Virus record (IMG/VR): IMGVR_UViG_3300010379_000002
Direction: 5' to 3' (one strand)
Length of the DNA stretch: 64,000 bases
DNA from: an uncultured virus (IMG/VR IMGVR_UViG_3300010379_000002)
Taxonomy: Duplodnaviria; Heunggongvirae; Uroviricota; Caudoviricetes
This document shows, one piece after another, positions 1 to 58,298 of the stretch. The number at the start of each line of letters is the position of its first letter. Within the stretch, counting starts at the first letter, position 1. The notes beneath the pieces are model-generated. The model had not been told where the DNA came from. It was given only the letters and a program-made list of their open reading frames with translations, and ran no database searches. Both the position numbers and the translations under genes were made by a program.

Positions 1-212
1 AATCTCACGTACCAGTGTGGCAATAGTTAACACTGATATAGATCAATCGTTCCTGAAAATAGAAAATATATATGTGATTGCAAGTGTTTATCACTAGTCC
101 GTGACCTCCCATTTTTCTAGGATGGCCCTCCTTTTAACCCGCCCAGCCGAGCAAAGGCAACTTCGGCCCTTTCTACCGCGTCGCGCATGGCCATGTTTGA
201 TAGGCATAACCC

Positions 213-557
213 TCACCCCTTATGATCGTGCCACGTGCCGCCGCCGTCGTGTGAATGGTGACCTTGGGCGAGCGCCTGCCGGTCAACCGACCGACCAGCC
301 AATTGTTCAGCCTTCATGATGGCGAGCTTCGCTTGTTGTGAGCCGGTCGCCATGATGCGGCGGTACGCGCACGCGTCGGTCACGCCGTCTCGGTCCGTGC
401 CGTCGAAGCCGACGAAAGTGATCGCACCTTGCGGTCCGATCTTGGGCTTGATCCGACCAGCGGCGAGACCTTGTGAGAGCTTCTCGACCGCCTTGCGGAC
501 TTCCGCAGCCCGCTCCTGGATCGTCTGACGCGGTTTCAGTCTGGTATCGCAGGGCAT
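213..557 (-). CDS. Hypothetical protein, last gene of the AAA ATPase operon (His-rich C-terminus)
   Basis: ORF starting MPCDTR, with a GGGAGG Shine-Dalgarno just after the stop of the upstream gene; C-terminal HHSHDGGGTWHDH. Confidence 0.7.
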   Translation of the reverse strand: MPCDTRLKPRQTIQERAAEVRKAVEKLSQGLAAGRIKPKIGPQGAITFVGFDGTDRDGVTDACAYRRIMATGSQQAKLAIMKAEQLAGRSVDRQALAQGHHSHDGGGTWHDHKG

Positions 558-568
558 GATAGCCTCCC

Positions 569-1318
569 TCAAGCCGCAGCGGTTTCAAGGTCGAGTTCAC
601 GACCGACCAGGATCGGCTCCGCAACTTCGCGAGCGGGGTCCAGGTCGAGGAACGCGGTGCGTGCTTCGTTCAGCGTGGCGATAGCCCGCTGGTCGATTGT
701 GATGGCGGCTGTCTCGCCAGCCTTGACGATCTTCCGCGCCTGCTCGCGAACCGCCTTGACGGCGAGTTCGATGCGGACCTGTGCCTCGGGAGACAGCATG
801 TTGCCGATTTGCTTTAGCTCGTTGGCGCTCTTGCGAATCTTCTCGACATCAAGCGCCTCAAGGCCTTCCTTCATGTCGGCGATCAGGTCGCGAACCTCGC
901 CGCTAATCGCCTGCACGGCTTTCACGTCATCGGACGCGACGCGACCGGTGAGAACAAAGCAATGCACGCGGGTCAGCTTGGCTTCGCGATTGAAGTCCTC
1001 GCAGAGCTTGCGGGCTTCGTCGGCGGCGCGGTCAAGATCGGGCGCGCCGGTCTCCGGACACAACAGCCCGAATGCGGTCTTGGTGCAGACGGACGTAACG
1101 AGCGCCCGCGCCTTCGAACGAACCTGAGAGGCACGCTCGAATTCCGCCGCATCGGTGATAGTGCGTTCGGTTTCCCATTTGGCCTTGAGACCACCTTCGG
1201 TCTCGTGCTCGGCCTCCAGGGTGTTCTTCACATAGAACACGTTGCCCTTCACGCTGGTATTCAGAGCGACCAGCAAGCCGGGACGCAGCGTGTTGGAGGC
1301 TGGAATGTTCGTTGTCAT
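569..1318 (-). CDS. Hypothetical helical protein coupled to the AAA ATPase
   Basis: 249-aa ORF with normal composition, co-oriented between the AAA gene and 213-557. Confidence 0.75.
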   Translation of the reverse strand: MTTNIPASNTLRPGLLVALNTSVKGNVFYVKNTLEAEHETEGGLKAKWETERTITDAAEFERASQVRSKARALVTSVCTKTAFGLLCPETGAPDLDRAADEARKLCEDFNREAKLTRVHCFVLTGRVASDDVKAVQAISGEVRDLIADMKEGLEALDVEKIRKSANELKQIGNMLSPEAQVRIELAVKAVREQARKIVKAGETAAITIDQRAIATLNEARTAFLDLDPAREVAEPILVGRELDLETAAA

Positions 1319-1398
1319 TTTCGTCGTCCTTGTGCTGTAGTGTTGGGGTTATAGCAGACCGGCGACGCCCTGTGTGGAAAACCGCCGGTCTTGGTTAC

Positions 1399-2997
1399 TC
1401 AAATGCCAAGGCTCCGAACTGGCGCCTGGACCTTGGTTTGGATAGCCTTGGTCGCCGGGCGCGCGCGACCCTTTGCCCAAGTCCGCAGAGCTTGAATCTT
1501 CTCGGAGGCAGTCGTGGTCAATGGGACAACGGTGCCAGCCGCTTCGATCAAGTCGGCGGTAGTGATTTCGCGAGCGCCGTCATTGAACGCCGTAAACAGG
1601 GCGTCCGGGACGATGGCAGCAATTTCGGCGCCCGTGTATTCCGGACACTTCTCGGCGACGGCTGCGAAGTCGATCTTGGCTTTGGGGCGTCCGTACTTGA
1701 CGAGAGCCGCCTTGAGCACCGCCTTGCGTTCCTCGGCGTTCGGAACGTCAACGAACCAGATTTCGTCGAAGCGGCCCTTCCGCAACAGTTCGGGCGGAAG
1801 GCTCGTAATGTCGTTCGCGGTCGCGAAGATAAATGCTTGACCGCGACGCTCTTGCATCCACGTCAGGATCGCGCCGAGGGCGTCGGCGGACACGCCGCCG
1901 TCAGCCGAGCCGCTCGTGGCGCCTTGCAGGCTCTTTTCTATTTCGTCGAGCCACACAACGCATCTACCTACGGCCTCAATAACCCTGAGCGCCTTACGCA
2001 AGTTGCCTTCGGACTCGCCGACAAACTTGCCTTTGAGCGCGCCCAGGTCGAGCTTCAAGAGCGGAATGCGATAGGCGGTCGAGGTAGCCTGAGCAAGCAG
2101 TGTCTTGCCGCAGCCGGAAACGCCTACGGTCAGGACGCCTTGCGGAGCGGGCAGACCATATTCGCGCGCCTCTTTGCTGTAGGCGCTCTTGCGCAGCATG
2201 AGCCACGCCTTGATGTTTTCGAGTCCGCCAACGGCGTCCAGACCGTTCGGGAGCGGGTCGTACCATTCGAGTACCTTTTCCCTTGCGATCACGCGCTTTT
2301 TCTCGGAGGCGACAAGCACCGGGTCGATCTTGCGCGTCTGTACAAGCGAACGCGCGAAACAGCCTTGTGCTTCCTCGCCGCTCAGACCGATGGCGGCTTC
2401 GATAGCAGCTTCACGCACGCCATTCGGCGCAGCGACCGAGCGCAACGGGTTGCCTTCCTTGTCGGTCTCGGGCAACGTGCTGATAGCGGTGTCGAGAATG
2501 GCGGCGATTTCCGTGCGATCCGGCAGCGGCCATTCAATAACGGTGGCTTGACCGGTCAAGTCCGGCGGCACGTCAGAGTTCGGGGTAAGAACAATGATCG
2601 GCTGCGCGCGCTCACGCGGGGGGAACAGCCGGGCGAGGTTGCGGAGTTGACGGAGCGGCTTGGCGCCCATCGGACCAGCGAGCCACACCGGCAAGTCGCG
2701 AAGAATCCACACGCCGCGCTCGGAGCCTTCTTTCGTGGCGCGGTCGCCGATGGCATTCAGCGTCGCTTCAAGGTCCTCTGAACCGACCGACTCTTTCTTG
2801 CCGGCGATATTCGTGACGCCTTGCGCAACGTCCCAAAAGTGTGCGGGGTATCCAGCCGCAGCGGCGGCTTCGGCGATGAAGCCCTCAACACGGGCTTCCT
2901 CCTTGGTCACAATCCAGATGAAAGGATTGCGCGCCCTCAACAGTGCGGACAAGTCAGCCGCTTGCTGTTGACCTTTGCTCAGTGTTGTCGTCGTCAT
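1399..2997 (-). CDS. AAA+ ATPase, Ycf46/SpoVK-like
   Basis: Walker A GVSGCGKT, Walker B VVWLDEIEK, SRH ATAN...LPPELLRKGRFDE, degenerate N-terminal AAA domain. Start moved to MTTTTLSK (2997) because of the GAGGAC RBS; the upstream ORF extension looks non-coding. Confidence 0.9.
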   Translation of the reverse strand: MTTTTLSKGQQQAADLSALLRARNPFIWIVTKEEARVEGFIAEAAAAAGYPAHFWDVAQGVTNIAGKKESVGSEDLEATLNAIGDRATKEGSERGVWILRDLPVWLAGPMGAKPLRQLRNLARLFPPRERAQPIIVLTPNSDVPPDLTGQATVIEWPLPDRTEIAAILDTAISTLPETDKEGNPLRSVAAPNGVREAAIEAAIGLSGEEAQGCFARSLVQTRKIDPVLVASEKKRVIAREKVLEWYDPLPNGLDAVGGLENIKAWLMLRKSAYSKEAREYGLPAPQGVLTVGVSGCGKTLLAQATSTAYRIPLLKLDLGALKGKFVGESEGNLRKALRVIEAVGRCVVWLDEIEKSLQGATSGSADGGVSADALGAILTWMQERRGQAFIFATANDITSLPPELLRKGRFDEIWFVDVPNAEERKAVLKAALVKYGRPKAKIDFAAVAEKCPEYTGAEIAAIVPDALFTAFNDGAREITTADLIEAAGTVVPLTTTASEKIQALRTWAKGRARPATKAIQTKVQAPVRSLGI

Positions 2998-3019
2998 ATC
3001 GTCCTCATGCTGGTTAGAG

Positions 3020-4566
3020 AGAGAAAATCTCGTGGGTGGAAAATATCTTCTCCCGTAGACGCTGGCAATAGCTACGTGGGGAGATTTGCCGGTCCTGGTT
3101 AACATCCGGTAAAAGCGAAATTTTCCACTCGGCGACCGGTTTCCGGGTCTGACTGTGGAAAACCTCGGCGCTGGCGGGGGGATAGCTGAGCAAGCGTGCG
3201 CCTGGGACCGGGAGCCGGTATAGGAGAGCCAAGCGGACAAAACGCATCCAGAGGCTTCCTTACGAGACTGCGGGGCGTATCCGGGATATGCCCCAAATTG
3301 GGACGACTCGTACCCGATCCGGGGGATGTTCCCGCTCGGGTCCTTTTGACTCCCGGAGGGGCTTTTCAAGCGGAATTGTTCCTGATAGGGTACACGAATG
3401 CTGTTGCGCGACAAACCCCCGGCGGCTCAAGCGGCCGAACGACATCGAAACCGCCGTAATAAGGCGGAACGTAAAGGCTTCGTCCCGCCGCCGCCAGAAA
3501 GCGAATGCCCGCCTCGGCCTGCTGACAATCGCTGTCAAATCCCTTCCTGTCGGCGGCAGGTCTCCTACCCCCTGACAATGGATCACGATCACGAAACCGG
3601 CCAGTTTCGCGGATGGATATGCCAGCCGTGTAATGGCATGTTGGGGTGGTGGGGTGACAACGTTGCAGGCTTAGAGGCAGTTTTAGCCTACCTAAAAGCC
3701 ACCGTTCGCTGACTTTACCAAATGTCAACCATAGCTGACAAATCGCCTGTCAGACCCCCTAGCAGAGACCCTCTTTTCGTGCCATCTTCGGGGTGTCGAA
3801 ACGGACTTGAAGGACGCCACCGGACGAGGCGGAAATCTCCGGGGTCTGAATGCGGCAAGGGTTCCTGGCCCGAACCGATACCTAAAAGCTCCCAGGAAGC
3901 GCCGCGAGGGCGGCGATCTAATCGGGCCGGTCTTTGGTCCGTCACCCGAACCCTCAAGAATCTGGAAGGCGGCGGCAATGCACCTTCCGAGCCTCTCAGG
4001 GGGCTTTAAGCGGCGAGACCAGCGGTCGCTCCGTAGACATCAGGGCAAGGCTTCCCGTGTGAAGCCGCACCGGCTTAACTGCCGGGCTTGGTTAGGAGCT
4101 AGAGGGATCGTAGACCCGCACCTGAGACTTACGGCGAGGCTCTAGCCTCGAACCCCGTGTCGGGCACATGCCGGTTCTTACCGGAGCCGCCTGCCCCGAC
4201 AGACCCGAGAGGGCGTCGCGATTTGCATCCCGGCCGGATGCCTTGGTGGCGCGAGCACGGGGTTCGAGAGTAGAACTAGGGAAGTGGTTTCGCCATACTC
4301 GGAGTGCGGATGGGAAGTTCCTGCTCTCCGATCTAAACACGGCTCCCGGCGGAGTGCGATTAGCGCAATAAGTCGCGCCGCCTGGACCGTGCCTCGGAGC
4401 GGGCCGATCAGGGACCATGCTTTGTCCCGGCGCCGCTCTCAGGCACGGTCCGAACTCCCCTTCAGCGACTCCAGCGTTAGGAGGAATCGGGCACATCGCA
4501 GGGGACGGCTGCGCAGCGGGGAGACAACCCCGCCCGCCCCAAGAGCCGGGATCGCAACCCGGTCCA
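3020..4566 (+). ncRNA. Candidate large structured RNA (one RNA with an embedded ORF, or two RNAs of ~370 and ~840 nt)
   Basis: No credible ORF except 3398-3712. Many nested stems (3034-44/3120-30, 3272-81/3285-94, 3750-58/3841-49, 4147-59/4256-68, 4384-94/4441-51), G-U wobbles that work only on the + strand, and GNRA loops. Confidence 0.55.
3398..3712 (+). CDS. Endonuclease VII-family (His-Me finger) nuclease
   Basis: C-x4-C...DHDHETGQFRGWICQPCN...LG...D motif of the Endonuclease_7 family. Confidence 0.85.
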   Translation: MLLRDKPPAAQAAERHRNRRNKAERKGFVPPPPESECPPRPADNRCQIPSCRRQVSYPLTMDHDHETGQFRGWICQPCNGMLGWWGDNVAGLEAVLAYLKATVR

Positions 4567-5218
4567 CTACATCATCGCTCGCCGAGTGTTCTGTCCGGCG
4601 ATCAGCCGATCAAACACATCCAGATTGCCGCACGTCGGTCGGACTGCGTGCGCGGCGGCGAGCCGCGTTTCGAGCGCCTCATAGGCTTCGGGATCGACGA
4701 AGTGACAACCACCGTGCGAGCACGGCCAGCCATAACTAGGACTTGTCTCCCCGCACAGGCAAACTTCCTGCGCCATTGTACATAACCTCCTCGGCAATTG
4801 CGTCGAAGCGTTTTCCGGCGGTGGCGGCTCTAGCCTCGGCGCGATTCTTCGCGAGACGCGCCTCAAAGTCTTTCCGCAGCGGTGTCGGGTCTTTGTTGAT
4901 TCGTTGCCGAAAAGCGACGAGTCGCTGCGCCTCAAGCTCGGCTTTTGCCTGCTCAAATGATCTATCCGGTTTGTTATACCAGCGGTCGGCCATCGGGCGC
5001 ATACCTTTGCGCGGCTTCCCATCGCCGCTTGAAGCCTTCGCGCTGGTCGGCACGGGCGAAGGGACTGTCGTCAAGGGCGTACCAAAGCCGCGAGTAATAG
5101 CACTGACCGCCAGCTTCAATAAAGACTTCGGAGAACGGTTCACGTTTGACACCCTCCCAATGAACTTCGCGCCGGACGATCCGGATGTCCGTTATCTCCG
5201 GCGGCAAGGTAGTCACCC

Positions 5219-5821
5219 TCACGGATACCACCCTTGTTCGATGTCACACGCACAGTGCAGGATACTCTCGTGCGCGAGTTGCACGAAGCCATACTCATGC
5301 GCGGGCACATAAAAGTTGAGGTTGCCAAGTCGGCGCAGCGGATTGTCCGGCTCGAAGCCGGAGAGCGTGATAACTAAGCAATCGAAAGCGCGCGCAGCGT
5401 GCACAGCGTCAAGAATGTTCGGCGACTTGCCGCTGCACGACATAGCGACAACGATGTCGTTGGAAGTGCCGTGCATCAGTTCAAGTTGCTTAGTGAAGTT
5501 GGCTTCGGGACCAAAATCGTTCGTATGCGATGTGAGCGCCACAGCGTCGGTGAGCGCAATAGACGGCCAACCGGCGAGCGAGAAGTCGGTGGCGATGTGC
5601 ATGGCGGTGGCGAGCGACCCGCCGTTGCCGAATAAGATGAAGCGCCCCGGTCGAACGCTATCTTTAATGCGTAACTTCGCCGCCCCTCGGATCGACAGTA
5701 TGCCACTGTCCAGGCTCAATGCGCTCGACTCCATTGTCTCGGCGTTGAGCGGGACCGTCACCAAGGTCGAAGCGGTCACCTGTTGCAACCGGGCGATCCA
5801 TGATTGCGTGAAGTCGATCAT
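5219..5821 (-). CDS. gmhA: SIS-domain phosphoheptose isomerase (GmhA-like)
   Basis: GNGGS...H.ATD, ND(F)G, SCSGKSPN motifs, C-terminal Q..H..ILH. Confidence 0.8.
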   Translation of the reverse strand: MIDFTQSWIARLQQVTASTLVTVPLNAETMESSALSLDSGILSIRGAAKLRIKDSVRPGRFILFGNGGSLATAMHIATDFSLAGWPSIALTDAVALTSHTNDFGPEANFTKQLELMHGTSNDIVVAMSCSGKSPNILDAVHAARAFDCLVITLSGFEPDNPLRRLGNLNFYVPAHEYGFVQLAHESILHCACDIEQGWYP

Positions 5822-6291
5822 CGGTGGGTGCCTCGGGCACGTTTGCGATCATCGCCTTTGCCCCTATTGCCAGAAGAAGCATCAGGATCATGTACAGTTG
5901 CAACGCTGTCAACGGCGACATTGCTCGACTCTTTCGATGGGATCGGCTCGATCTTGATTTCCTCGACGAGCTTGATAGCGCGCCGACGCTGAATGCGCAA
6001 GGGTAGAATATAAACATTGCTCTTGGGGTACGAGACGATGCGGGTCTCTTTCACCATGCGCCGCCGGAACATGGCAGTTGACCGCTCATTGCGCCACACA
6101 CGTTCGATGATCTTGCCACTCTCAAGGCTGTATGCCGTCGTGTGGACGAGACCGCAGTCGCAGCACACGGAAAAGCGGACGCCGCCGAGCGGCACGACAC
6201 GCGGCTCGCCCGGCTCGGGGCGATAGTAGTTCGACGCGCGCCCGAGCTTCGGTTCGGTCTTGTGTTTCTTGCCGTAGTTAAGTTTGCTCAC
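5818..6291 (-). CDS. Hypothetical protein (CCDCGLVH motif)
   Basis: 157-aa ORF with 4-nt overlaps to both neighbours. Confidence 0.6.
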
Positions 6292-6572
6292 CCTAGCATC
6301 CCAAGCGCCGCCAAATAGGTTTCGAGAATCGCCTCGGCTTCCTTGCGCTCGTTAATGTCCAGCTTGCGCAGCCGAACGACGGTGCGCAACGCCTTCACAT
6401 CGAAGCCATTGCCTTTGGCTTCCGCGTATACGTCACGGATGTCGTCGGCGAGAGCCTTCTTCTCCTCCTCAAGTCGCTCGACGCGCTCGACGAACGCCTT
6501 GAGTTGATCCTTGACGACTCGACGCGCGGTCGGTTCGTCCATGGTCGCGGTTCCGGTTGTGGCGGTTGCCAT
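6288..6572 (-). CDS. gapR: GapR/DUF2312 nucleoid-associated protein
   Basis: [48 protein letters not shown]...[13 protein letters not shown] is the DUF2312 signature. Confidence 0.92.
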
Positions 6573-6597
6573 CGGGGACTTCCTTTCGTCGAGGTTG

Positions 6598-6768
6598 CTA
6601 TGCTACACGCTTCAAGATTTCGGCTAGAGCCTCTTTATATCCTCCGATCACGACTTGCATGTACGGGAAGTCGGGACCGAGATAACTTTGTTTTCGAGTC
6701 CTATTGTCTTGCCAATACCAGTATTTGTGACCCTTGACAATCTTCGACACGAAAGACCCATACTCCAT
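6598..6768 (-). CDS. Small 56-aa protein not in the ORF track ([33 protein letters not shown]...)
   Basis: Translated by hand. The KG..YWY.Q......Y.GPD pattern resembles small beta-rich DNA-binding modules (DUF6788-like). Confidence 0.55.
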
Positions 6769-7007
6769 CTGAGCTTCGTTGCAATGTCAATGGCTTCTTT
6801 CGGGTCACCGCCGACGCCCCTTGACTGTTGCGCGGCGTTCTTTGTTCGCTGCATACATGCGGTTCAGTTCCGTGCACCAACGCTCGGCTTGCGCGCTGCT
6901 CTTGGTGGTCATGGAGACCGGATACTCTTGCCCGTCCGGACCGGCGGTCACCACCCAATAGTCAACGCCGCGCGCACCGCTACCGGACTTCACGACATAC
7001 GGGTTGC

Positions 7008-7589
7008 TCATGCAGTCATCCTCGCTTCCATGACGCGGCGGAGCCGCACATCCATGGCGTCGGTGCCTTGGTACGGAGTCATGTCCAGGTTGAACGGGAC
7101 GCGGCGAATGCGCTCGTCCTCGGCTCGTTTGATTTGGGTGAGCATGAAACGGTTGTAAGAGACGAGACCGCTCGGACCGTATTGGAGCCTCACGCCGTAT
7201 TCCTCGGCGCATGTGGCGACGCCGTGCGCGGGGAAGTATGGTTCGTCGTTGGCTCTCAGCATACACAAGAGACTCAGCAATAGTTCAAGCTCTCGGCCTT
7301 GAAGTTCGTTCAGGGCGTCGAGAATAGCCTTCTCGACTTTCTCATGGAGGAACAGGAAGCGATCACAATCTATCAGCTTGCCGAGCCACTGCCACTTTTG
7401 TAGATCGCGATCAATGAAGATCATCATGCCGTCTTTGCTGTAGCCGGCAAGATAGGGAATGTCCCAATCCCGAGTATTGAGTACCGGGTTGCGCCGCATG
7501 TAGCGGTCCACTTGAGGAAGCTGAATGATCTTGTTGGCTTCATTCAACGTGAACTTGACTGGAACGTTCTTGTCGCCGGTTGACATCAC
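7008..7589 (-). CDS. Hypothetical protein, possible metal-binding enzyme (HExxE...H...E)
   Basis: 193-aa ORF with FLHEKVEK and AHGVATCAEE. Confidence 0.6.
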   Translation of the reverse strand: MMSTGDKNVPVKFTLNEANKIIQLPQVDRYMRRNPVLNTRDWDIPYLAGYSKDGMMIFIDRDLQKWQWLGKLIDCDRFLFLHEKVEKAILDALNELQGRELELLLSLLCMLRANDEPYFPAHGVATCAEEYGVRLQYGPSGLVSYNRFMLTQIKRAEDERIRRVPFNLDMTPYQGTDAMDVRLRRVMEARMTA

Positions 7590-8011
7590 TGCACCAACGA
7601 AAATCCGAGCGCGGTGGCGAACTCGGCGTTGCCTGTGGGCAGGCGGTCGCCGGGGAAGCTGACGATGATGTCACCGAGCAAATGCTGTTTGCTCGCACCT
7701 TCGTAAACCCATTGCCAGCCGGGTTGATCCTTGTAGTGGACTGCGCGCCGGAGATTGCCGTCGCTGAGACGGGCGAGAATCCGAACTTCTTTGAGCATGT
7801 TATTTTCCCTTCCAGGAGCTTACGGTTTCGAGTAGGACTGCCAAAGCAACCGCCGCCAGTCCAGTCAAAAATATGAGCGCGGCGCCCGCAAAGAGCACAG
7901 CCCACCCGAACCACAACGGCAATAAGACAAGCCACCACGACCAAGTGATGACCCCGGCGAGCTTGAGTCCAATAAAAAGCAGACCAAGCAACGAAAGAAA
8001 AGTTGAGATAC

Positions 8012-8530
8012 TCATGCGATCCCCCGTAGTCGGTCGAGTTCAGTCGGCGGGATTTCAACTGTCTCGCCGTTCGGTAGTGCGCGGAAATACTTGCCGGTTG
8101 CCGGGTTGTGGAAAATCTCCATGTCCGCGCCAGGAACCGTCCCGATCTTCGGCGGTGAGTTGTCTTGCGCCACGTCGAGACCGCCGTCAACCTTTTCTTG
8201 GTTGCGCTTAGCGAAGTGCTCCGGCGGCCTCGCCAGCACGCGCGCAAGCTCCATTTCGAGCAAGCCGTCCGGTTCCGTGTTACTGAGCACGGCGCACAGA
8301 ATGTTCGTTGTCAAGAGGACGCCGCCGATTTCTTGCATCGGCTCGCCGGATGGTCGCTTGTAAACGGTATCGGTGCAAAGGTCCACCTTGTCCTGCGGGA
8401 CGCCGACCGCTTGGCAAAGCTCGACAGCCTCCTCCAAAATGCGGAGCGCCCTGGTCGGGATATTGGCGACGTGATCGAGACCGAAAGCCCTAACAGCCCA
8501 TTCGCAGGCGAGACGGGACAAGATACTCAT
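8012..8530 (-). CDS. MazG-like NTP pyrophosphohydrolase fold protein
   Basis: LRILEEAVEL...QEIGGV pattern (EExxE...ExxG). Confidence 0.55.
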   Translation of the reverse strand: MSILSRLACEWAVRAFGLDHVANIPTRALRILEEAVELCQAVGVPQDKVDLCTDTVYKRPSGEPMQEIGGVLLTTNILCAVLSNTEPDGLLEMELARVLARPPEHFAKRNQEKVDGGLDVAQDNSPPKIGTVPGADMEIFHNPATGKYFRALPNGETVEIPPTELDRLRGIA

Positions 8531-8770
8531 GAGGACTCCGCTTCGGCGAAACCTCGCCGGGGTGGCATTGGATCATCTTCCACTTGCCCGACCACACAGC
8601 ACACAGAACGGCATGGAGGGGGTTTGTCACGCGTTGACCGTCCATACCAAACATCCGACCGACTGGCAAGAGGCTCCCTTCATGCAAAACAGTGAACTTC
8701 GCATTGGCGGGATCGGAGTCGTGCCGGTCCTGGTCGGTCAGAATGGTGTGCGGCGGAACGATGATCGGCT

Positions 8771-9124
8771 TCACCGGACCCTCCTCGGGGGTTTTTCGGG
8801 ATGCTCTATCGCGTTCCAGACGCCGGTCGGCTGACCGTAGACGTGGCGAATGGAGTGAACCTCGTAGTTAATAATGGCATCCGCCGGAAGGGCATTCGCG
8901 AGGCAGACTTGCCAACGCCGCCAATGCGTCAGAGCTTTGCCGTGGCGGTTTTTCCAGTCTACCCGGAATTGTACTGTGAGAATGTGTCGGCCGCCGAACT
9001 CCAATGCGTCTTGAAGGTTCCGGGCGAAGTATGTCCCCTTGCGGAACCCGTTACGCAGGATCGAGCGCGCCTTGCGCGCGCTGGTCGTCCCATGCCACCA
9101 AATTATTTGCGGAGGACTGCTCAT
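8771..9124 (-). CDS. Putative ADP-ribosyltransferase-fold protein
   Basis: WHGT...ILRNGF...GTYFA...A..FG matches the H-Y strands of ART/PARP-like domains. Start placed at MSSPPQ, overlapping the upstream stop. Confidence 0.5.
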   Translation of the reverse strand: MSSPPQIIWWHGTTSARKARSILRNGFRKGTYFARNLQDALEFGGRHILTVQFRVDWKNRHGKALTHWRRWQVCLANALPADAIINYEVHSIRHVYGQPTGVWNAIEHPEKPPRRVR

Positions 9125-10629
9125 TTTCGGCGCATCGCAAGGTAAGTACCGGCGAACGCCCCGGCGGCGGCTGGTATGAGCATGATTGGGTCGTGGACAT
9201 AGCTCAAGATCACCCCGCCTTGGAGTATCAGGCACCCCGCCGCGTAGCCGGATGCCCACCATGGGCGCTGAGTTGCGACTGCCATAGTGTAGCGCGTGAA
9301 TACGAAGTCTAACGCGACCATACCGAAGAACGCTATGAACGCTTCCCTCATGCGCGCCGCACTTCGGCGCGACGGCGGCTCGGCGTTTCGCCCGGCAGTT
9401 TCGGACCAAAACCCCCGCCGGGGAAGTGCTGTAGCTCTAGCGGCTCGGTGAGCGCGTCGAGCGCGGTGTCATTGATCTTGCGCATCGCCTCGCGTAATTC
9501 GCAGATTTCGTGGATTGCTCCCTCGACCAACTCTTTTTGGTGTGTCGCGCCAGCCCGAGCTAGATCGTCGGCGACTCTCTGTAGCGGCAAGAGATTTACG
9601 CGCCTTATCATTTGACCATCGGCCTTCCGTGTTGGATGGTGAGTTCCTCGGGCTTTCGACCTAGTTGGCGCGCGGCTCTGTCGATGACGCGGGCTTTGTG
9701 ACCCATCGCCTGTCGCTCGCGCCCGAGCGCCGTAAGCTCGCCCTTCGCGTCGAGTATACCATGACCTTGCAGGATTTCAATGGCGAGCGCGTGCGCCTTG
9801 TCGGGCGCATGACCTTTGGCTCGGAGTTGGTGTTCCAAGCTATCGGAAATGCCAGCCGACCATTTGCCGGTGGAATCACGCGGCTGAGTAGGGCTGTACA
9901 TGCCACCCTTCAAAGCAGAGCGCAAGCAAGCCCTGCCACACGGCGATGAAGCCGACGAACAGAAGAATCATCATTTTCATTCCCCTTGTTGAAACTTGTG
10001 GCGGAAGTTGTCAAGTGCGAGTATCTTCGGCTTCGGACCCGCCATCGTTTGAGGCGAAGGACGTTCGGACGGAAAGGCATTGGGGTTTTCGGTTTCTCGG
10101 CGGATCATTTCGTCGAGCCAAATCTGGACGGTCTCCCATCGCTCAAGATCGCCGCAGGTCACGTCGCCGTCTGGCGTGCTGATGGGTCGGCTATCCTCGA
10201 TAGACCAAGCAAGATCGGTGGTGACCGGAAACGCGCGGACGAAGATGCCTTCTTGCGCAATGATACCCCATGCAACAATTGGAGCGGTCTCGAACCGACC
10301 ACCCTTGAAATAGTACAACACATCCCATCCGGGGAGTGCCATAACGAATGCAACCTCGTCGGTCATTCTGTGTCACTCATTCGGGACGGGGGGCTTCACT
10401 TCCTCTTTACCGGTAGGCGTGGTGGGTGTCAACCCGGCGCTCGGGCGCGGACGTGGGCGTGGTCCGGATGTTTGGGCAACCGGGAAATTCTGACGAAACG
10501 GACTAGGTTCGGTTTTTGGATTCTGCGTCCATGCGAGAAAACGGTGCATCGTCTCTAACATCTGCTCGCGGCGACGCGCGCACCCCTCACAATCTTTCAG
10601 GTCTTTAAGCAGCCCCATCGTGTCCTCCA

Positions 10630-12099
10630 TTATACATTAGTCGCCTCTAACATTTTGCGCAGGCCGTGACCAGTCACCGCATCGGCAAGCGAGATATTCC
10701 CATCTATGATCTGCCAAAGCCGATCATCCACTGTGCCAAAATGCCGCACCCTCACGATGGCGACGCTTTTGCCGCCTTTAATCGTGGCGCGCTCCTCGGC
10801 TTGCGCCATCATCCGGGCGTTCGGGTTCGCTGACATAAAAATGACTGCATCTGCCGTTGAGAAGTCTAAGCCCTCTCCGCCGCAGTCCGGCGTCCCGATC
10901 ATCACGCTATTGTCGGAGGGCTTCAAGAAGATGGCTCGGTTCGCCTCCCGCTGAGTGGTCGTAAAGTCACCCCAATACTCAAGCACGTGCTCGCCGCGCT
11001 TCCGCAGCTTGGCGGCGAGCCGCCGACACTCCTCTTTGTAGCGGCACCACACAAGCGACTTGCCGGGCAGTGTGCCGTCGATTTCGTCGATCACCGCGTC
11101 GTAGATCGGAGCGTCGGAGTCTATGGTCCGTATCACTTTGGACTTGGTGTCCATGATGAAGCCGCTGAGGATTTGCTGCAACTTCATCATCCTTGGACCA
11201 GCATCCTTGACCGCGACGTTGGTGTCCTCCACTTCGGCAAGATGGTCGGCTACCATTTGCAGGTACGCTTTGCGCTGCACTTCTCCCATGACGACCGGGC
11301 GCTCGGTGCGGATCAGTTCGGGCATATCGCCAAGCTCGGAGCGAAGCACGAGGCTCGACCATTTGGCGATTTCTCTCGTTAGCTGGTCGAGATTCAGGTA
11401 TCGCTTGACTTTTTCACGTTGACGAAAGCCGGGCTTGCCGATTGGCTGGAACTCAGCAAATTGTTTTTTGAAAGCCTTGAGCGTTCCGTAGCCGAGCGCG
11501 CCGGGCGCCAGCAACTCATACTGACTGAACGCGCGGAGCGGTCCGGTAAGGATCGGCGTGCCACTCTCAGTGCGCACCGCGTTGGCGTGATATGAGAGAT
11601 TGCGCGCTCGGCGAGTGCGCTTAGCGTCCGGGTGTCCGAAGTGGTGAGCCTCGGAGACGATCAGCATGTAGCGGTGGTGGCAAGACCGCAGGAATTGCTT
11701 GATGGCGACCTTGCAGTCGTCGTGAGTCAACGCCTCCATATTGATGCAGAACCACCGCAGCGTCTCGGCGCGAGGCACGATGAATTCAGTCCACCGTTGC
11801 TGTTGTGCCGGAGCGAACCGCTGCGGGGTAGACCACGCAAACGTGCGATGCCGGTACTTGGTCCAAGCCCAGGTCGGGATTTCGTTGCGCGCGTAATTCA
11901 GGTGCACGCCGTTCGGCGCGATGACGATGACGCCCTCAACATCGCCCTTGCCGAACCGATAGCAGGCGACATCAATGACGCCCCGTGACTTGCCTGAGCG
12001 CATAGGCCAGATGTACGCTCGGCTGCGCCGGTCTCGGTGCTCGTCAAACTCTTTTTGCTGATGCGCCCAACGCGGTGAGCTTGCTTTATTAGGAGCCAT
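10630..12099 (-). CDS. SNF2-like SF2 helicase with altered motifs
   Basis: MRSGKS (motif I), IVSEAHH (II), SGTP (III), KLQQI, GGEGLD (V), QAEERA (VI). Confidence 0.85.
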   Translation of the reverse strand: MAPNKASSPRWAHQQKEFDEHRDRRSRAYIWPMRSGKSRGVIDVACYRFGKGDVEGVIVIAPNGVHLNYARNEIPTWAWTKYRHRTFAWSTPQRFAPAQQQRWTEFIVPRAETLRWFCINMEALTHDDCKVAIKQFLRSCHHRYMLIVSEAHHFGHPDAKRTRRARNLSYHANAVRTESGTPILTGPLRAFSQYELLAPGALGYGTLKAFKKQFAEFQPIGKPGFRQREKVKRYLNLDQLTREIAKWSSLVLRSELGDMPELIRTERPVVMGEVQRKAYLQMVADHLAEVEDTNVAVKDAGPRMMKLQQILSGFIMDTKSKVIRTIDSDAPIYDAVIDEIDGTLPGKSLVWCRYKEECRRLAAKLRKRGEHVLEYWGDFTTTQREANRAIFLKPSDNSVMIGTPDCGGEGLDFSTADAVIFMSANPNARMMAQAEERATIKGGKSVAIVRVRHFGTVDDRLWQIIDGNISLADAVTGHGLRKMLEATNV

Positions 12100-21370: not shown

Positions 21371-21755
21371 ATGACAATAGCCGCCTCACGCCATGACATT
21401 TTCCAGTGGGAAAACCAGCCTTTCCCGCGCACCCTGCCACAGTTCCAAAAACTGTTCCCGGATGACGCTGCTTGCGCCAAATGGCTTGAAGGCGTGAAGT
21501 ATCCGGGCGGGTGCTCCGATGCCGCCATTGTCAAGCGGACGCGCCGCTGACCGCCGGAACGGTTATGCAGGACACCAGGACGCCACTGGCGACTTGGTTT
21601 TGGGGTGCCTACCTTGCGGCAACCTCGACTCCGGGCATTTCGACAGTGCAGTTCCAGCGCCAGCTTGGTCTTAGACGCGAAACCGCTTTCCAAATCCTGC
21701 ACAAGCTCCGCGCTGGAATGGTGCGCCCTAACCGCGATCCCATTGGCGGCAATCT
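21371..21755 (+). pseudogene. IS1595-family transposase remnant (internal deletion with frameshift, truncated)
   Basis: FPRTLPQFQKLFPDDAACAKWLEGVKYPGG, then in another frame RCRHC...TAGTVM..TRTPL..WF...GIS..Q.QRQLGL..ETA...LHKLR.GM. The DDE domain is absent. Confidence 0.85.
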
Positions 21756-22292
21756 GGCGCGAGATAGATTCTGCCGGTGCTCAAATGAGCGCGGTGGCTT
21801 TTTCTTCCCAAGTTGAGCGCGAGATATTCTCATACGCGCTTCTGGCCCATGTCTAGGACCGCGCATTTTTTCTATCGACTCGGGCGAATGTTTACGCCCT
21901 GTAAGAGTTGCAGCTATTCGGGCACGCGTCTCGGTAGTCTGTGGATGTCTTTTTCCGCGCATAGCCTGAGACTGTTTTTCAAGACTTCGCGGCAGTCTAT
22001 TTTTACCGTTGCGCCCGCGCTCCCCGCCAGCCGCTAAATTCAAACCAAGAGGCCAACGAGTTTGAAAGACTTCAATAGCGCGCGGTTCAAGTCCATAAAG
22101 ATATTCCGAAGTCCCAACAACAAGAACACAAAGTGCGACCTGCTCACGACCGACTAACCGAATAGCCGAACCAACCTCGGTTCTCGCCGCGCAATGTTGT
22201 TGAAATCGCCGTCTCGCGTTTAGCGCGACCCCGATATACGCCCGGCCATTCGGAAATGTCAGTTTGTAGAGTTCAGCCACGGTGTAACCCAA
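21609..22292 (-). CDS. GIY-YIG homing endonuclease with NUMOD3 repeats
   Basis: LYKLTFPNGRAYIG...RRF.QH, LN...GG, repeats such as HSPESIEKM and ETRARIAA..TGRK. Confidence 0.85.
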   Translation of the reverse strand: MGYTVAELYKLTFPNGRAYIGVALNARRRFQQHCAARTEVGSAIRLVGREQVALCVLVVGTSEYLYGLEPRAIEVFQTRWPLGLNLAAGGERGRNGKNRLPRSLEKQSQAMRGKRHPQTTETRARIAATLTGRKHSPESIEKMRGPRHGPEARMRISRAQLGKKKPPRSFEHRQNLSRARLPPMGSRLGRTIPARSLCRIWKAVSRLRPSWRWNCTVEMPGVEVAAR

Positions 22293-28193: not shown

Positions 28194-28739
28194 TCATGCC
28201 GCGACGGCGACTAGCCGCTCCCTTGGATACGCCCATCTAATCGGCTCGGCTTGTTGCCACGGGCGCTCAAGATATGCAAGCCATATTTTTGCTCCGCGAA
28301 CACCGTTCGCTGCCGTCTGCCCGGTATTGCATTGGTGACAGCACCACCCACGAAACCGACCTGTTTCATGGCAATGATCGAAATGAAATCCGCGAGTTGA
28401 TTTTTGGTTGCAACATTCACATAAATCGGGAGGTAAGCGATTCGGTATTTCAATCCACATTCCTGAGTCATAAGCTATTTTTCGCGCTCGATTTTCAAGT
28501 TTAGCCCGATATTTCTTCATTCGCGCGCCTATCTGTACTTTGTTTTGGGCATAATAGCGCCGACTCTTAACCTGCATAGGCACTTTGTTCTCGGCATATT
28601 GCGCAGCCTTTATCTTCTTTACTCGTGTTCGGTTTTGAGCGTACCACGCAGCCGACGTTTCCTCTCTCCGCCTCTTAACCTCTGGTCGAGCACGGTATGC
28701 GGCGTCCTTCTTTCTTCGCGTGACCCTCTTTTCGATCAT
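28194..28739 (-). CDS. Endonuclease VII-family nuclease
   Basis: Basic helical repeats, then CECC...DHCHETGRFRGWCCHQCN. Confidence 0.85.
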   Translation of the reverse strand: MIEKRVTRRKKDAAYRARPEVKRRREETSAAWYAQNRTRVKKIKAAQYAENKVPMQVKSRRYYAQNKVQIGARMKKYRAKLENRARKIAYDSGMWIEIPNRLPPDLCECCNQKSTRGFHFDHCHETGRFRGWCCHQCNTGQTAANGVRGAKIWLAYLERPWQQAEPIRWAYPRERLVAVAA

Positions 28740-49302: not shown

Positions 49303-50367
49303 ATGCAAATCTTGACCTACAAATATCGCTTGAAAGACCGCCGCGCCGCAACGGCACTTCGCGGCCACGCTTTCCAATGCAATCAAATATGGAACCGGTG
49401 CGCTGCCCAGCACCGCGACACGCTCAACCGCTACCGGGCGGGAGCGCCAAAACGAAAATGGCTCTCACACTTTGATATTGCCAAGACATTCAAGGGCTAC
49501 GGACGAGAGATCGGACTACATCAACAGACTATCGGCTCAATCTGTGAGCAATGGGTCCGCAACCGCTCGACTCGTTTCCGCGCCAGCTATGGCCCTAAAC
49601 GCGCGCTTGGCTGGATACCGTTTCAAAAGCAGTCGCGCCAGATTAAGAACAACTCGATTTGGTATCTCGGCAAGCAATATCGCTTCTTTGGCAGCAAGCG
49701 GCGACCACTGCCTGACAACGCGAAGGGTGGCTATTTCACTGAGGATGCACTTGGCCGCTGGTACGTTTGTTTTCACGTCGAGGTAGAGCGCAAGCCATGT
49801 GTCGGCAACGCTGAGATCGGCATTGATCTGGGCTTAAAATCATTCGCTACGCTGAGCAACGGCGAGAAGATCGAAGCGCCGCAAATCTACCGGCGTTACG
49901 AGGGTCGGTTAGCCGTGGCGCAGCGTGCTCACAATAGGCAGCGCGTGCGGCGACTCCATGCCAAGATTGCGAATTGCCGCAGAGACTTTCTACACAAGAC
50001 TAGCACGGACCTTTCCGCTCGATACGCGCTAATCGCGGTTGGAGATGTGAACGCGAAACAGCTTGCACAGACACGGATGGCAAAATCCGTGCTCGATGCA
50101 GGTTGGTCTACTTTCCGCTCAATGCTGAAATACAAGTCCGCTGGATACTTGGAGGTAGACGAAAAATTCACGACCCAAACCTGTTCTCAGTGCGGTGCGT
50201 TGCCGCCAGAGAGGCCGAAAGGTATCGCAGGGCTTGGAATAAGGACGTGGCAATGTTCAGCATGTGGTACAGACCACGACCGCGACGTGAATAGCGCGCT
50301 GAACATTCTCGCCATTGCCGCCCGAAGTGCTGCGGGTCCAGTTGTGGAAAGCCGGGTAGCCACATGA
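49303..50367 (+). mobile_element. tnpB: TnpB RNA-guided endonuclease (IS200/IS605 family) with no adjacent TnpA
   Basis: TYKYRL, GIDLGLK (RuvC-I), VGD and VDE..TTQTCSQC, CSAC...DRDVNSALNI (RuvC-III). Confidence 0.92.
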
Positions 50368-57854: not shown

Positions 57855-58298
57855 ATGTACGGACAGCGTTATCAAGGTGAGCCGTGTCGGCGCGGCCACT
57901 CAGGCGAACGCTACGTCAGTAACGATGGATGCGTTGATTGTGTGCTGCAATGGGCATCCGCTCGGCGTCGCACTAGAGGCGAGAAAGTTCGCCCTACGGG
58001 ATCGGTCAATGAGCTACACCGCGAAGCTAAAGCGCGCCGAAAAGGATACGCGCCTCCGCCGCGTGAGGTAGATTGTCCGCCGCGTCCGGCAGATGGTAAG
58101 TGCCAAAGTTGCAAACGAGTGCGCCCGCTAGTGCTCGACCACGATCATTTCACCGGAGCGTTTCGCGGCTGGACTTGTCGCCATTGCAACGTCGGGATTG
58201 GCGTGCTAGGTGATACCGTAGCGGACTTGCAGCGGGCACTCGCTTACCTGCTACGCCACTATGCTCCTGAGTACGAAATAAGAACAGATACGCGATAG
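57855..58298 (+). CDS. Endonuclease VII-family nuclease with N-terminal Zn module
   Basis: PC.RGH..ERYVSN..C..C, then CQSC...LDHDH.TG.FRGW.C..CN..IG...D. Confidence 0.88.
   Translation: MYGQRYQGEPCRRGHSGERYVSNDGCVDCVLQWASARRRTRGEKVRPTGSVNELHREAKARRKGYAPPPREVDCPPRPADGKCQSCKRVRPLVLDHDHFTGAFRGWTCRHCNVGIGVLGDTVADLQRALAYLLRHYAPEYEIRTDTR

Follow-up and report, generated by a model that had tools for sequence, protein, structure and literature searches.

The 64,000-nucleotide (nt) stretch of DNA analysed here, which we call the window, is the IMG/VR record IMGVR_UViG_3300010379_000002 of an uncultured virus of the class Caudoviricetes, and our subject is a gap of 1569 nt within it (positions 2998-4566) that lies between two minus-strand genes, one for an AAA+ ATPase (1399-2997) and one for a cysteine-rich protein (4567-4776). 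This gap is probably a composite locus and not one RNA, consisting of a control region for the AAA gene, a selfish gene for a small endonuclease VII (EndoVII) and at least two small conserved RNA modules, which we call element 1 and element 2. Both modules are conserved in related phages, both retain helices through changes on the two sides of a base pair, and the greater part of element 2 is present in two RNA libraries; the strand, the transcript ends and the functions proposed below are inferred.

In the arrangement that we propose, the left ~170 nt would be the AAA control region, with a minus-strand promoter and GTGGAAAA repeats that are probably bound by protein as DNA, and the remainder would form a small plus-strand island, antisense within a minus-strand operon, that carries at least two independently folded RNA modules. 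Element 2 would begin with the hairpin at 4299-4331 and accumulate as a stable RNA of ~245-250 nt (4306-4554), surviving through the helices that close its 3' end and acting in trans as a phage small RNA, with the invariant GGGAAGUnCCUGCUCU of its hairpin as the contact surface for a target RNA or protein. Element 1 would be a protein- or ligand-binding junction acting in cis on its own transcript, and the EndoVII gene may have landed between conserved blocks, cutting neither module and using the plus-strand transcription of the island.

A probable discrete RNA and a conserved hairpin in element 2

The public runs listed for the window number 24, of which 20 contain part of the stretch and two, X18 and X19, are RNA libraries, namely peat metatranscriptomes from two samples of one study (85 and 248 million letters in size). 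When these two were compared with positions 1400-6000, X18 yielded a single contig at 4307-4550 (244 nt, no mismatch) and X19 a single contig at 4306-4554 (one mismatch), the only other RNA match in that region being a 36-nt piece at 1762-1797 with five mismatches. Because two small libraries both assemble this ~245-nt stretch but no phage gene from around it, these data point to an abundant and discrete RNA at 4306-4554, presumably from the plus strand, which also folds better than shuffled sequence (z-score -4.30 on plus and -2.84 on minus). The rest of the gap, 2998-4305, is uncovered in the RNA runs, which is uninformative in either direction.

The stretch found as RNA begins within a plus-strand hairpin, block G (4299-4331), which occurs with an invariant interior AGTGCGGAnGGGAAGTnCCTGCTCT in the window and in two related phages, L030 and G002. 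Its outer stem of 6 base pairs (bp) reads UCGGAG/CUCCGA in the window, CCGUAG/CUGCGG in L030 and CGGCAG/CUGCCG in G002; over its 11 pairs, 32 of 33 cells are paired and three pairs are changed on both sides, compared with none in six slid controls, and the structure conservation index (SCI) is 1.02 with a z-score of -5.96. A second plus-strand hairpin at 4344-4387 (GGCGG-AG-TGCGATT...GTCGCG-CCGCC) is 88% identical over 43 nt to G002 (locus L133, 8843-8883) and was not found in L030, where block G precedes a further hairpin and then a terminator, a 12-bp stem with TTTTTCTTTT, that overlaps the end of the convergent cysteine-rich gene. In the predicted fold of the window a helix closes 4340-4547, just before the contig ends at 4550 and 4554.

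Directly 5' of block G in L030, positions 3807-3878 (minus strand of that locus) score 26.6 bits with the Rfam model Proteo-phage-1 (RF03044; E 0.005 in a 251-nt search, gathering score 42). Since the 3' consensus of this model, CCGGCAGCC, resembles by reading the 5' arm of block G in G002, the Proteo-phage-1-like stretch and block G may belong together in a larger motif. Block G is also adjoined by a small protein family that ends in ...VHEAAARAARDVLAHGLQTS..GSRLD and has no Pfam or PHROG family, on opposite sides in the two phages (L030 3885-4238, minus; L133 8251-8403, plus).

A four-helix junction in element 1

The core of element 1 (3995-4126, plus) is a four-helix junction conserved in the window, L030 and G002, which have in common the sequence AAGCGGnnAGA(C/T)CAGCGGTCG ... 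CTAGAGGG-N7/8-(C/T)CCGCAC(C/T)TG. The whole unit is closed by helix Px (3996-4000/4121-4125), which reads UCAGG/CCUGA in the window, ACAGG/CCUGU in L030 and UCAAG/CUUGA in G002. Helix Py (4028-4031/4096-4099), with GCUC/GAGC in the window, GGGC/GCCC in L030 and GGGU/GCCC in G002, encloses a domain of 40 to ~100 nt that is different in each phage. The two other helices are hairpins, GACC-AGC-GGUC (GACC-AGC-GGTC at 4017-4027) and GGG-loop-YCC (GGG-N8-CCC at 4104-4117).

The long inserts of the window were beyond MAFFT, and alignment was made via anchors and a covariance model. This model, R1, built from L030 and G002 only with the window left out, recovers window positions 3996-4125 at full length with 48.7 bits (E 1.4e-11), and a search of 418,611 bases from 35 of ~139 sources, among them the complete window and G002 in full, gave three matches in all: the two parents and the window. 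In the alignment 46 of 47 cells are paired, the sole failure being an A-C cell that stems from gap placement in G002, and four of 16 pairs are changed on both sides, a count reached by 7 of 500 shuffles; six slid controls have 22-52% of their cells paired and 0-2 double-changed pairs. The initial annotation of this stretch had named covariation among homologues as a check on its prediction of a structured RNA, and in both element 1 and block G the helices are indeed kept via compensatory changes, as is expected of a structured motif, over three loci only. No contig of the RNA libraries covers element 1.

A further plus-strand helix, GCTAGAG/CTCTAGC (4098-4146), crosses Px and would therefore be a pseudoknot or an alternative fold; no covariation is possible for it because its 5' arm is invariant, and at the matching place G002 has, by reading, UAGAGGG/CCCUCUA ~60 nt apart. 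The part upstream of the core (3717-3994, plus) combines the blocks AATGTCA, GTCAG and CATCTTC with ~145 nt unique to the window phage. Of the long-range helix CCCGCTTG/CAAGCGGG that L030 and G002 are predicted to form, the window has by reading only five of the eight pairs, and the helix is not kept there. Downstream, the domain closed by a 13-bp stem (4147-4268, plus) belongs to the window phage only; L030 keeps just its 5' arm motif GAACCCGTG, directly ahead of an open reading frame (ORF) of 117 amino acids (aa). In G002, GACCAGCGGTCGG recurs at L133 11440-11530, where it precedes a long hairpin and a T-run that lie immediately ahead of the next gene; R1 gave this place no score.

Module order, strand and points of doubt

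The modules are probably separate units, because their order changes between phages and genes split them. The window has, in order, the EndoVII gene, element 1, the private 13-bp-stem domain and element 2; L030 has element 1, the 117-aa ORF, the Proteo-phage-1-like stretch, block G and the terminator. The order in G002 is block G (L133 8114-8152), a 50-aa ORF, another ORF, hairpin 2 (8843-8883), several ORFs and element 1 (10650-10890), which places block G and hairpin 2 ~1.8-2.5 kb before element 1 with several plus-strand ORFs of 78-139 aa intervening, one of them with Pfam DUF7717. The 50-aa ORF of G002 matches the C-terminal part of the 117-aa ORF of L030 (73% DNA match over 134 nt).

That these modules lie on the plus strand, antisense to the flanking operon as the initial annotation held, is likely. 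All six one-sided pair changes in element 1 and block G give G-U or U-G on plus and would be A-C on minus; the inserted ORFs, EndoVII in the window and the 117-aa ORF in L030, are on plus, as is the orientation of the L030 terminator, and the G002 modules are co-oriented with the genes around them.

Several observations weigh against our reading of the locus and of its strand. There are three loci in all (window, L030 and G002, L016 being the same phage as the window), and the covariation comes from three sequences only, with helices chosen with all three in view. The consensus fold of element 1 has a modest z-score that is no better on plus (-2.24 forward, -2.34 reverse), and for a longer element compared between L030 and G002 the consensus-fold z-score was -2.0 forward versus +0.46 reverse, with 40 of 200 shuffled alignments having as many compensatory pairs. 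Thermodynamics alone picks no strand, its preferences being mixed: 4306-4554 favours plus and 4251-4500 favours minus (z-score -3.24 on plus, -4.09 on minus). A promoter scan found no plus-strand promoter. Both RNA runs are from a single study, their contigs carry neither strand nor exact ends, and they start at 4306/7, past the 5' arm (4299-4304) of the covarying hairpin but still within that hairpin, possibly since the RNA is processed or since the assembly falls short of the true end. Lastly, the window has no terminator after 4554, the T-run that follows hairpin 2 in G002 is on the opposite strand, and searching the window for targets of the block G stretch returned only 9-10-mers at chance level.

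The left region and probable signals at the DNA level

The leftmost stems described in the initial annotation exist as sequence, but a conserved promoter on the minus strand and a repeated 8-mer occupy part of the same positions, and reading these stems as DNA signals is the simpler interpretation. A promoter scan identified a putative sigma-70-like promoter of the AAA gene, TTGCCA-17 nt-TATTTT (minus strand, 3068-3040), ~36 nt ahead of the AAA start, and L030 has by reading the same layout at the aligned place (TTGCCC-17-TACTTA). Because this promoter is conserved in L030, what had been described as a GGCAA loop and a GGGTGGAAAAT stem arm would be its -35 and -10 regions.

Three GTGGAAAA/TTTTCCAC 8-mers are clustered in 3036-3162, at 3036-43 (plus), 3121-28 (minus) and 3155-62 (plus); those at 3121 and 3155 form an inverted repeat whose 26-nt spacer holds GACC-N7-GGTC, and both the spacing and the inner motif are kept in L030. 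In the window GTGGAAAA occurs 7 times against 2.03 expected, a count that one of 100 shuffles reaches, and it resembles the DnaA box, TTATCCACA. The repeat cluster probably acts at the DNA level through protein binding. The left conserved region (3090-3348, no strand assigned), with GGTTAAC, CCGGGAGCCGG, TAGGAGA, CCGATCCGG and ATGTTCCCG, is conserved in L030 only; its consensus fold has z-scores of -3.0 forward and -2.7 reverse and an SCI of 0.27, and G002, which lacks the AAA gene as well, gave no match to it anywhere.

Extending this view to the entire gap gives the rival that survives best, unlikely as it is: a DNA-level control or replication-origin region in which the short palindromes (GGTTAAC, GACC-AGC-GGTC, TTTTCCAC-N26-GTGGAAAA and CCGATCCGG) are bound by protein and the RNA contig represents a stable part of the transcript of the minus-strand operon, just after the cysteine-rich gene. 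Besides the enrichment and clustering of GTGGAAAA, it can point to GGTTAAC, which cannot form an RNA hairpin, to consensus folds that are alike on both strands, to the better folding of 4251-4500 on minus, and to the contig start, which read on minus lies 13-17 nt past the stop codon of 4567-4776. However, Px, Py and the block G stem pair through changes on both sides, which DNA sites do not need; the one-sided changes are uniformly G-U on plus only; the helix arms stay paired across inserts of 40 to ~100 nt; and the modules are present in G002 without the AAA gene.

Modules as possible parts of messenger RNAs

Quite unlikely, in our estimate, is a reading of the modules as cis-acting parts of messenger RNAs (mRNAs) for small phage ORFs, such as leaders, processing or stabilising hairpins and terminators, with element 1 as a riboswitch-like leader and CUAGAG switching partners. 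Element 1 does lie ~185 nt before the 117-aa ORF in L030 and ~77 nt before a 56-aa ORF in G002; block G of G002 comes right after a gene stop, is followed by GAATTTTT and stands ~100 nt before the 50-aa ORF that matches the L030 ORF; and CUAGAG can pair either within the junction or with a downstream CUCUAG. Yet the ORFs downstream are mutually unrelated, the window has no credible ORF after element 1 or element 2, and the only ORF over the accumulated RNA (4284-4739, 151 aa) has no Pfam family, extends into a minus-strand gene and lies where the frame plot is flat to ~4450.

A single giant RNA as an unlikely reading, and the limits of folding

The initial annotation had described the gap as nearly all nested helices and had suggested, as one of three readings, a large RNA of the GOLLD/ROOL size class. 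On re-reading, the listed stems are where they were placed (TCTCGT 3028-33/ACGAGA 3262-67, GGGTGGAAAAT 3034-44/ATTTTCCACTC 3120-30, TCAGACCCC 3750-58/GGGGTCTGA 3841-49 and GCTAGAG 4098-104/CTCTAGC 4140-46), as are the GNRA-capped loops CCC-GAGA-GGG and GC-GCGA-GC, and a repeat search recovered extended inverted repeats at 4147-59/4256-68 (the 13-bp stem) and 4384-94/4441-51 (the 11-bp stem). The same search found a direct repeat, GGGTCTGA, at 3145 and 3842; the pairing of GGGTCTGAC (3145-53) across the ORF with GTCAGACCC (3749-57), which had been suggested, is by reading absent in L030, and an inverted repeat of 13 nt at 3126-38/4576-88 is by estimate at about chance level.

Folding against shuffled sequence places these stems in perspective. 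The right part as a whole, 3713-4566 (854 nt), has z-scores of -4.11 on plus and -3.17 on minus (20 shuffles each), and 2998-3397 has -2.45 and -1.31. The z-scores of 3745-3992 (-1.32 on plus, -0.83 on minus, with 20 and 47 of 200 shuffles as good) and of 3993-4290 (-1.48 and -1.61) are weak, 12-47 of 200 shuffles folding at least equally well on either strand of the two segments. The claim of folding beyond chance thus stands at 4251-4554 and fails for 3745-4290. In a sliding scan of 250-nt windows over 1-10,750 (25 shuffles each), coding windows go down to -2.7 and -3.3, as low as most gap windows. Because z-scores are weak outside 4251-4554 and coding windows are equally low at the ~60% G+C of this piece of the phage genome, most of the stems are what chance would give.

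One giant ornate plus-strand RNA of 1.2-1.5 kb with the nuclease ORF in a loop is, accordingly, very unlikely. In its favour are the better-than-shuffled folding of the 854-nt right part and the collinearity of window and L030 blocks over the whole gap, with an L030 z-score of -3.85 over 761 nt; yet the window signal stems from 4251-4554, the two segments before it are no better than shuffles, and the RNA contigs span only ~245 nt. In G002 the left region is missing and the modules come in the opposite order, with ~1.8 kb of ORF-bearing sequence separating them, and the places of the ORFs differ from phage to phage.

Known families do not account for the gap either, in agreement with the initial annotation, which could match it to none: cmscan of the whole 64-kb window against the 4227 families of Rfam 15 gave no match at gathering scores, and a scan of 2800-4800 at E up to 10 gave just four matches of 17-21 bits, to microRNA, internal ribosome entry site (IRES) and small RNA (sRNA) models. 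Rfam scans of G002 and L030 likewise gave no family at gathering score, and ARAGORN found no tRNA or transfer-messenger RNA (tmRNA) in the window.

Coding content of the gap

The EndoVII ORF is the sole recognisable gene in 2998-4566, and the earlier statement that the ~1.2 kb around it has no credible coding was borne out. Decayed or unrecognised protein-coding sequence is most improbable: there are ORFs of 95-151 aa on both strands, but the GC frame plot is flat across 3700-4450, a Pfam scan of the five ORFs in or overlapping the gap (3722-4009, 3807-4145, 4092-4496, 4284-4739 and 4567-4776) gave no family, and tblastx of the gap against the homologous L030 gap found no conserved reading frame inside. 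The ORF at 4736-5152, just past the gap, also gave no Pfam family.

The EndoVII cassette

The EndoVII cassette (3349-3716, plus) comprises a 49-nt leader and an ORF of 104 aa (3398-3712), and ends at the stop codon. The protein has PF02945 (E 1.8e-15) as its only domain and matches six PHROG endonuclease VII families. In L030, ATGTTCCCGnnCGGnnnCTTT runs directly into ..AATGTCA.. where the window has 3349-3716, and the flanks ...ATGTTCCCG..CGG...CTTT and AATGTCA... abut without a cassette. Related copies of the ORF are found elsewhere in the window, at 57993-58250 (plus, 54%) and 28266-28412 (minus, 41%), and at other places in L016 (8374-8592, 52%) and L030 (8485-8682); those in the window have no sequence in common with the gap beyond the ORF itself. 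Because L030 lacks it, with a clean junction at that place, and paralogues of it occur elsewhere, the EndoVII gene is, as judged from sequence comparison, a mobile insertion with the pattern of a free-standing homing-type gene: a nuclease domain, present or absent between relatives at a precise junction.

The initial annotation had advised a search for homologues lacking the ORF, and L030 is one: it keeps the RNA blocks without EndoVII at that place, and the RNA therefore does not need the nuclease, which leaves the idea that the two are partners unsupported. An intron-like ribozyme that carries a homing endonuclease, or a guide RNA that works with the nuclease as in HEARO or IscB, is hardly credible even with an HNH-superfamily-type nuclease ORF in structured non-coding sequence on the same strand, because there is no plus-strand host gene (both flanking genes are on the other strand, which leaves no exons, and no plus-strand frame spans the gap), no match to group I or II introns, HEARO or other Rfam families even at E up to 10, and because the EndoVII paralogues of the window have only the ORF in common with the gap and the 104-aa protein has the EndoVII domain only.

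An IscB/TnpB guide RNA was considered and rejected, the ORF having PF02945 only and the TnpB-like gene of the window lying 45 kb away with no sequence common to the gap. That gene (49303-50367, plus, 354 aa) has Pfam OrfB_IS605 (E 6e-17) and a Cas12f1-like TNB domain (E 6e-19), and five tblastn matches to phage G002 at 32-63% identity. One contig of X11, a DNA run from lake water, passes directly from 3348 to 3774, skipping 425 nt, and would lack the EndoVII cassette and 57 nt more; it has 24 letters on its shorter side and is not relied on.

Relatives, neighbouring genes and searches

The gap shares patchy blocks with L030 and G002. Among 42 metagenome loci with the AAA gene, only L016 and L030 carry gap blocks, and blastn of the gap against these loci returned L016, L030, an EndoVII-ORF match in L020 and one weak match. 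L030 has an AAA protein 64% identical to that of the window and both flanking genes as in the window. G002, a complete 117-kb phage, has many genes in common with the window at 35-63% identity and no AAA homologue; it was reached by a pattern scan for GGGAAGTnCCTGCTCT in viral contigs, which gave 73 loci of which one was real (L077). The gap nucleotides had no match in 50,697 GenBank phage records, and this part of the genome is outside the coverage of the nearest record, G001.

Other searches added no locus. In viral contigs, the EndoVII protein gave none, two block patterns gave none, a hairpin stem pattern gave two loci, both unrelated, and the cysteine-rich protein, alone or aligned, gave nothing usable (one 10-residue match and none, respectively). 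Twelve viral loci with the AAA gene have no nucleotide likeness to the gap, their synteny breaking upstream of AAA; a single Firmicutes locus from a metagenome-assembled genome, obtained with the cysteine-rich protein in genome contigs, was spurious; a fuzzy block search over all collected loci found only the window, L016 and L030; and literature searches on the gap motifs found nothing.

On the left boundary, the AAA+ ATPase has PF00004 (E 1.9e-23), AAA_lid_3 and PHROG 8638 (E 3e-168), and shares 48% identity with gp96 of Mycobacterium phage Corndog and of its relatives; upstream of gp96, Corndog has no gap comparable to that of the window. On the right boundary, the cysteine-rich protein (69 aa) is 48-49% identical to the L030 protein at the same position and has no Pfam or PHROG family. 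Elsewhere, window positions 21395-21761, empty in a crude gene map, have 71-74% nucleotide identity to G002 8816-9246 in reverse orientation and are probably a missed gene, because a 101-aa ORF there is 69% identical in protein to G002.

Meaning and comparison with known systems

These results illustrate that in soil and lake phage genomes, which are annotated almost wholly by protein genes, a gap can harbour small, folded and conserved RNAs that do occur in environmental RNA. Two motifs without an Rfam match, one of which assembles from small metatranscriptomes where no phage mRNA does, are candidate regulators of infection, and the locus is a clear case of a selfish nuclease gene in non-coding RNA territory. 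They also call for caution, as lists of nested stems are to be expected by chance in G+C-rich DNA, and it took a comparison with relatives to tell signal from noise in this case. A bolder generalisation, which we put forward tentatively and with a small chance of being right, is that of a portable RNA island: two undescribed phage RNA families, one a four-helix ligand- or protein-sensing junction that has an invariant core and uses CUAGAG as a switch or in a pseudoknot, the other a stable ~250-nt sRNA with an invariant contact stretch, would move with small ORFs as loose modules and offer a safe landing site for homing endonuclease genes.

The GOLLD and ROOL RNAs, whose association with prophages is mentioned in PMC5737381, are like this locus non-coding, phage-borne, rich in helices and without known function; unlike them, the units here match neither of the two models, are separable, measure ~35-130 nt and have no tRNA gene association. 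Proteo-phage-1, described in a part of the same paper (PMC5737381), is likewise a small phage-associated RNA motif, but its score in L030 is below gathering and it matches neither the window nor G002; a full-text literature search for its name returned no papers.

Element 1 recalls a tRNA in having four helices in cloverleaf order, but has joiners of 16 and 3 nt and a 3-nt loop on its second helix. Small RNAs that act through a conserved seed form a general class, and element 2 resembles them in being discrete and abundant at ~250 nt, in having an invariant, pyrimidine-rich stretch within its conserved 5' hairpin and, in L030, in ending at an intrinsic terminator; it differs in that the target search gave chance-level matches only and the window copy lacks a terminator. 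Free-standing homing endonuclease genes of phages include, for example, the seg and mob genes of T4. Unlike these, the EndoVII gene occupies a non-coding site that is not in or beside an essential gene, and its homing and cleavage are putative; like them, it encodes a small nuclease, is found in one phage and missing from a close relative with a clean junction, has several diverged copies per genome and sits between conserved blocks.

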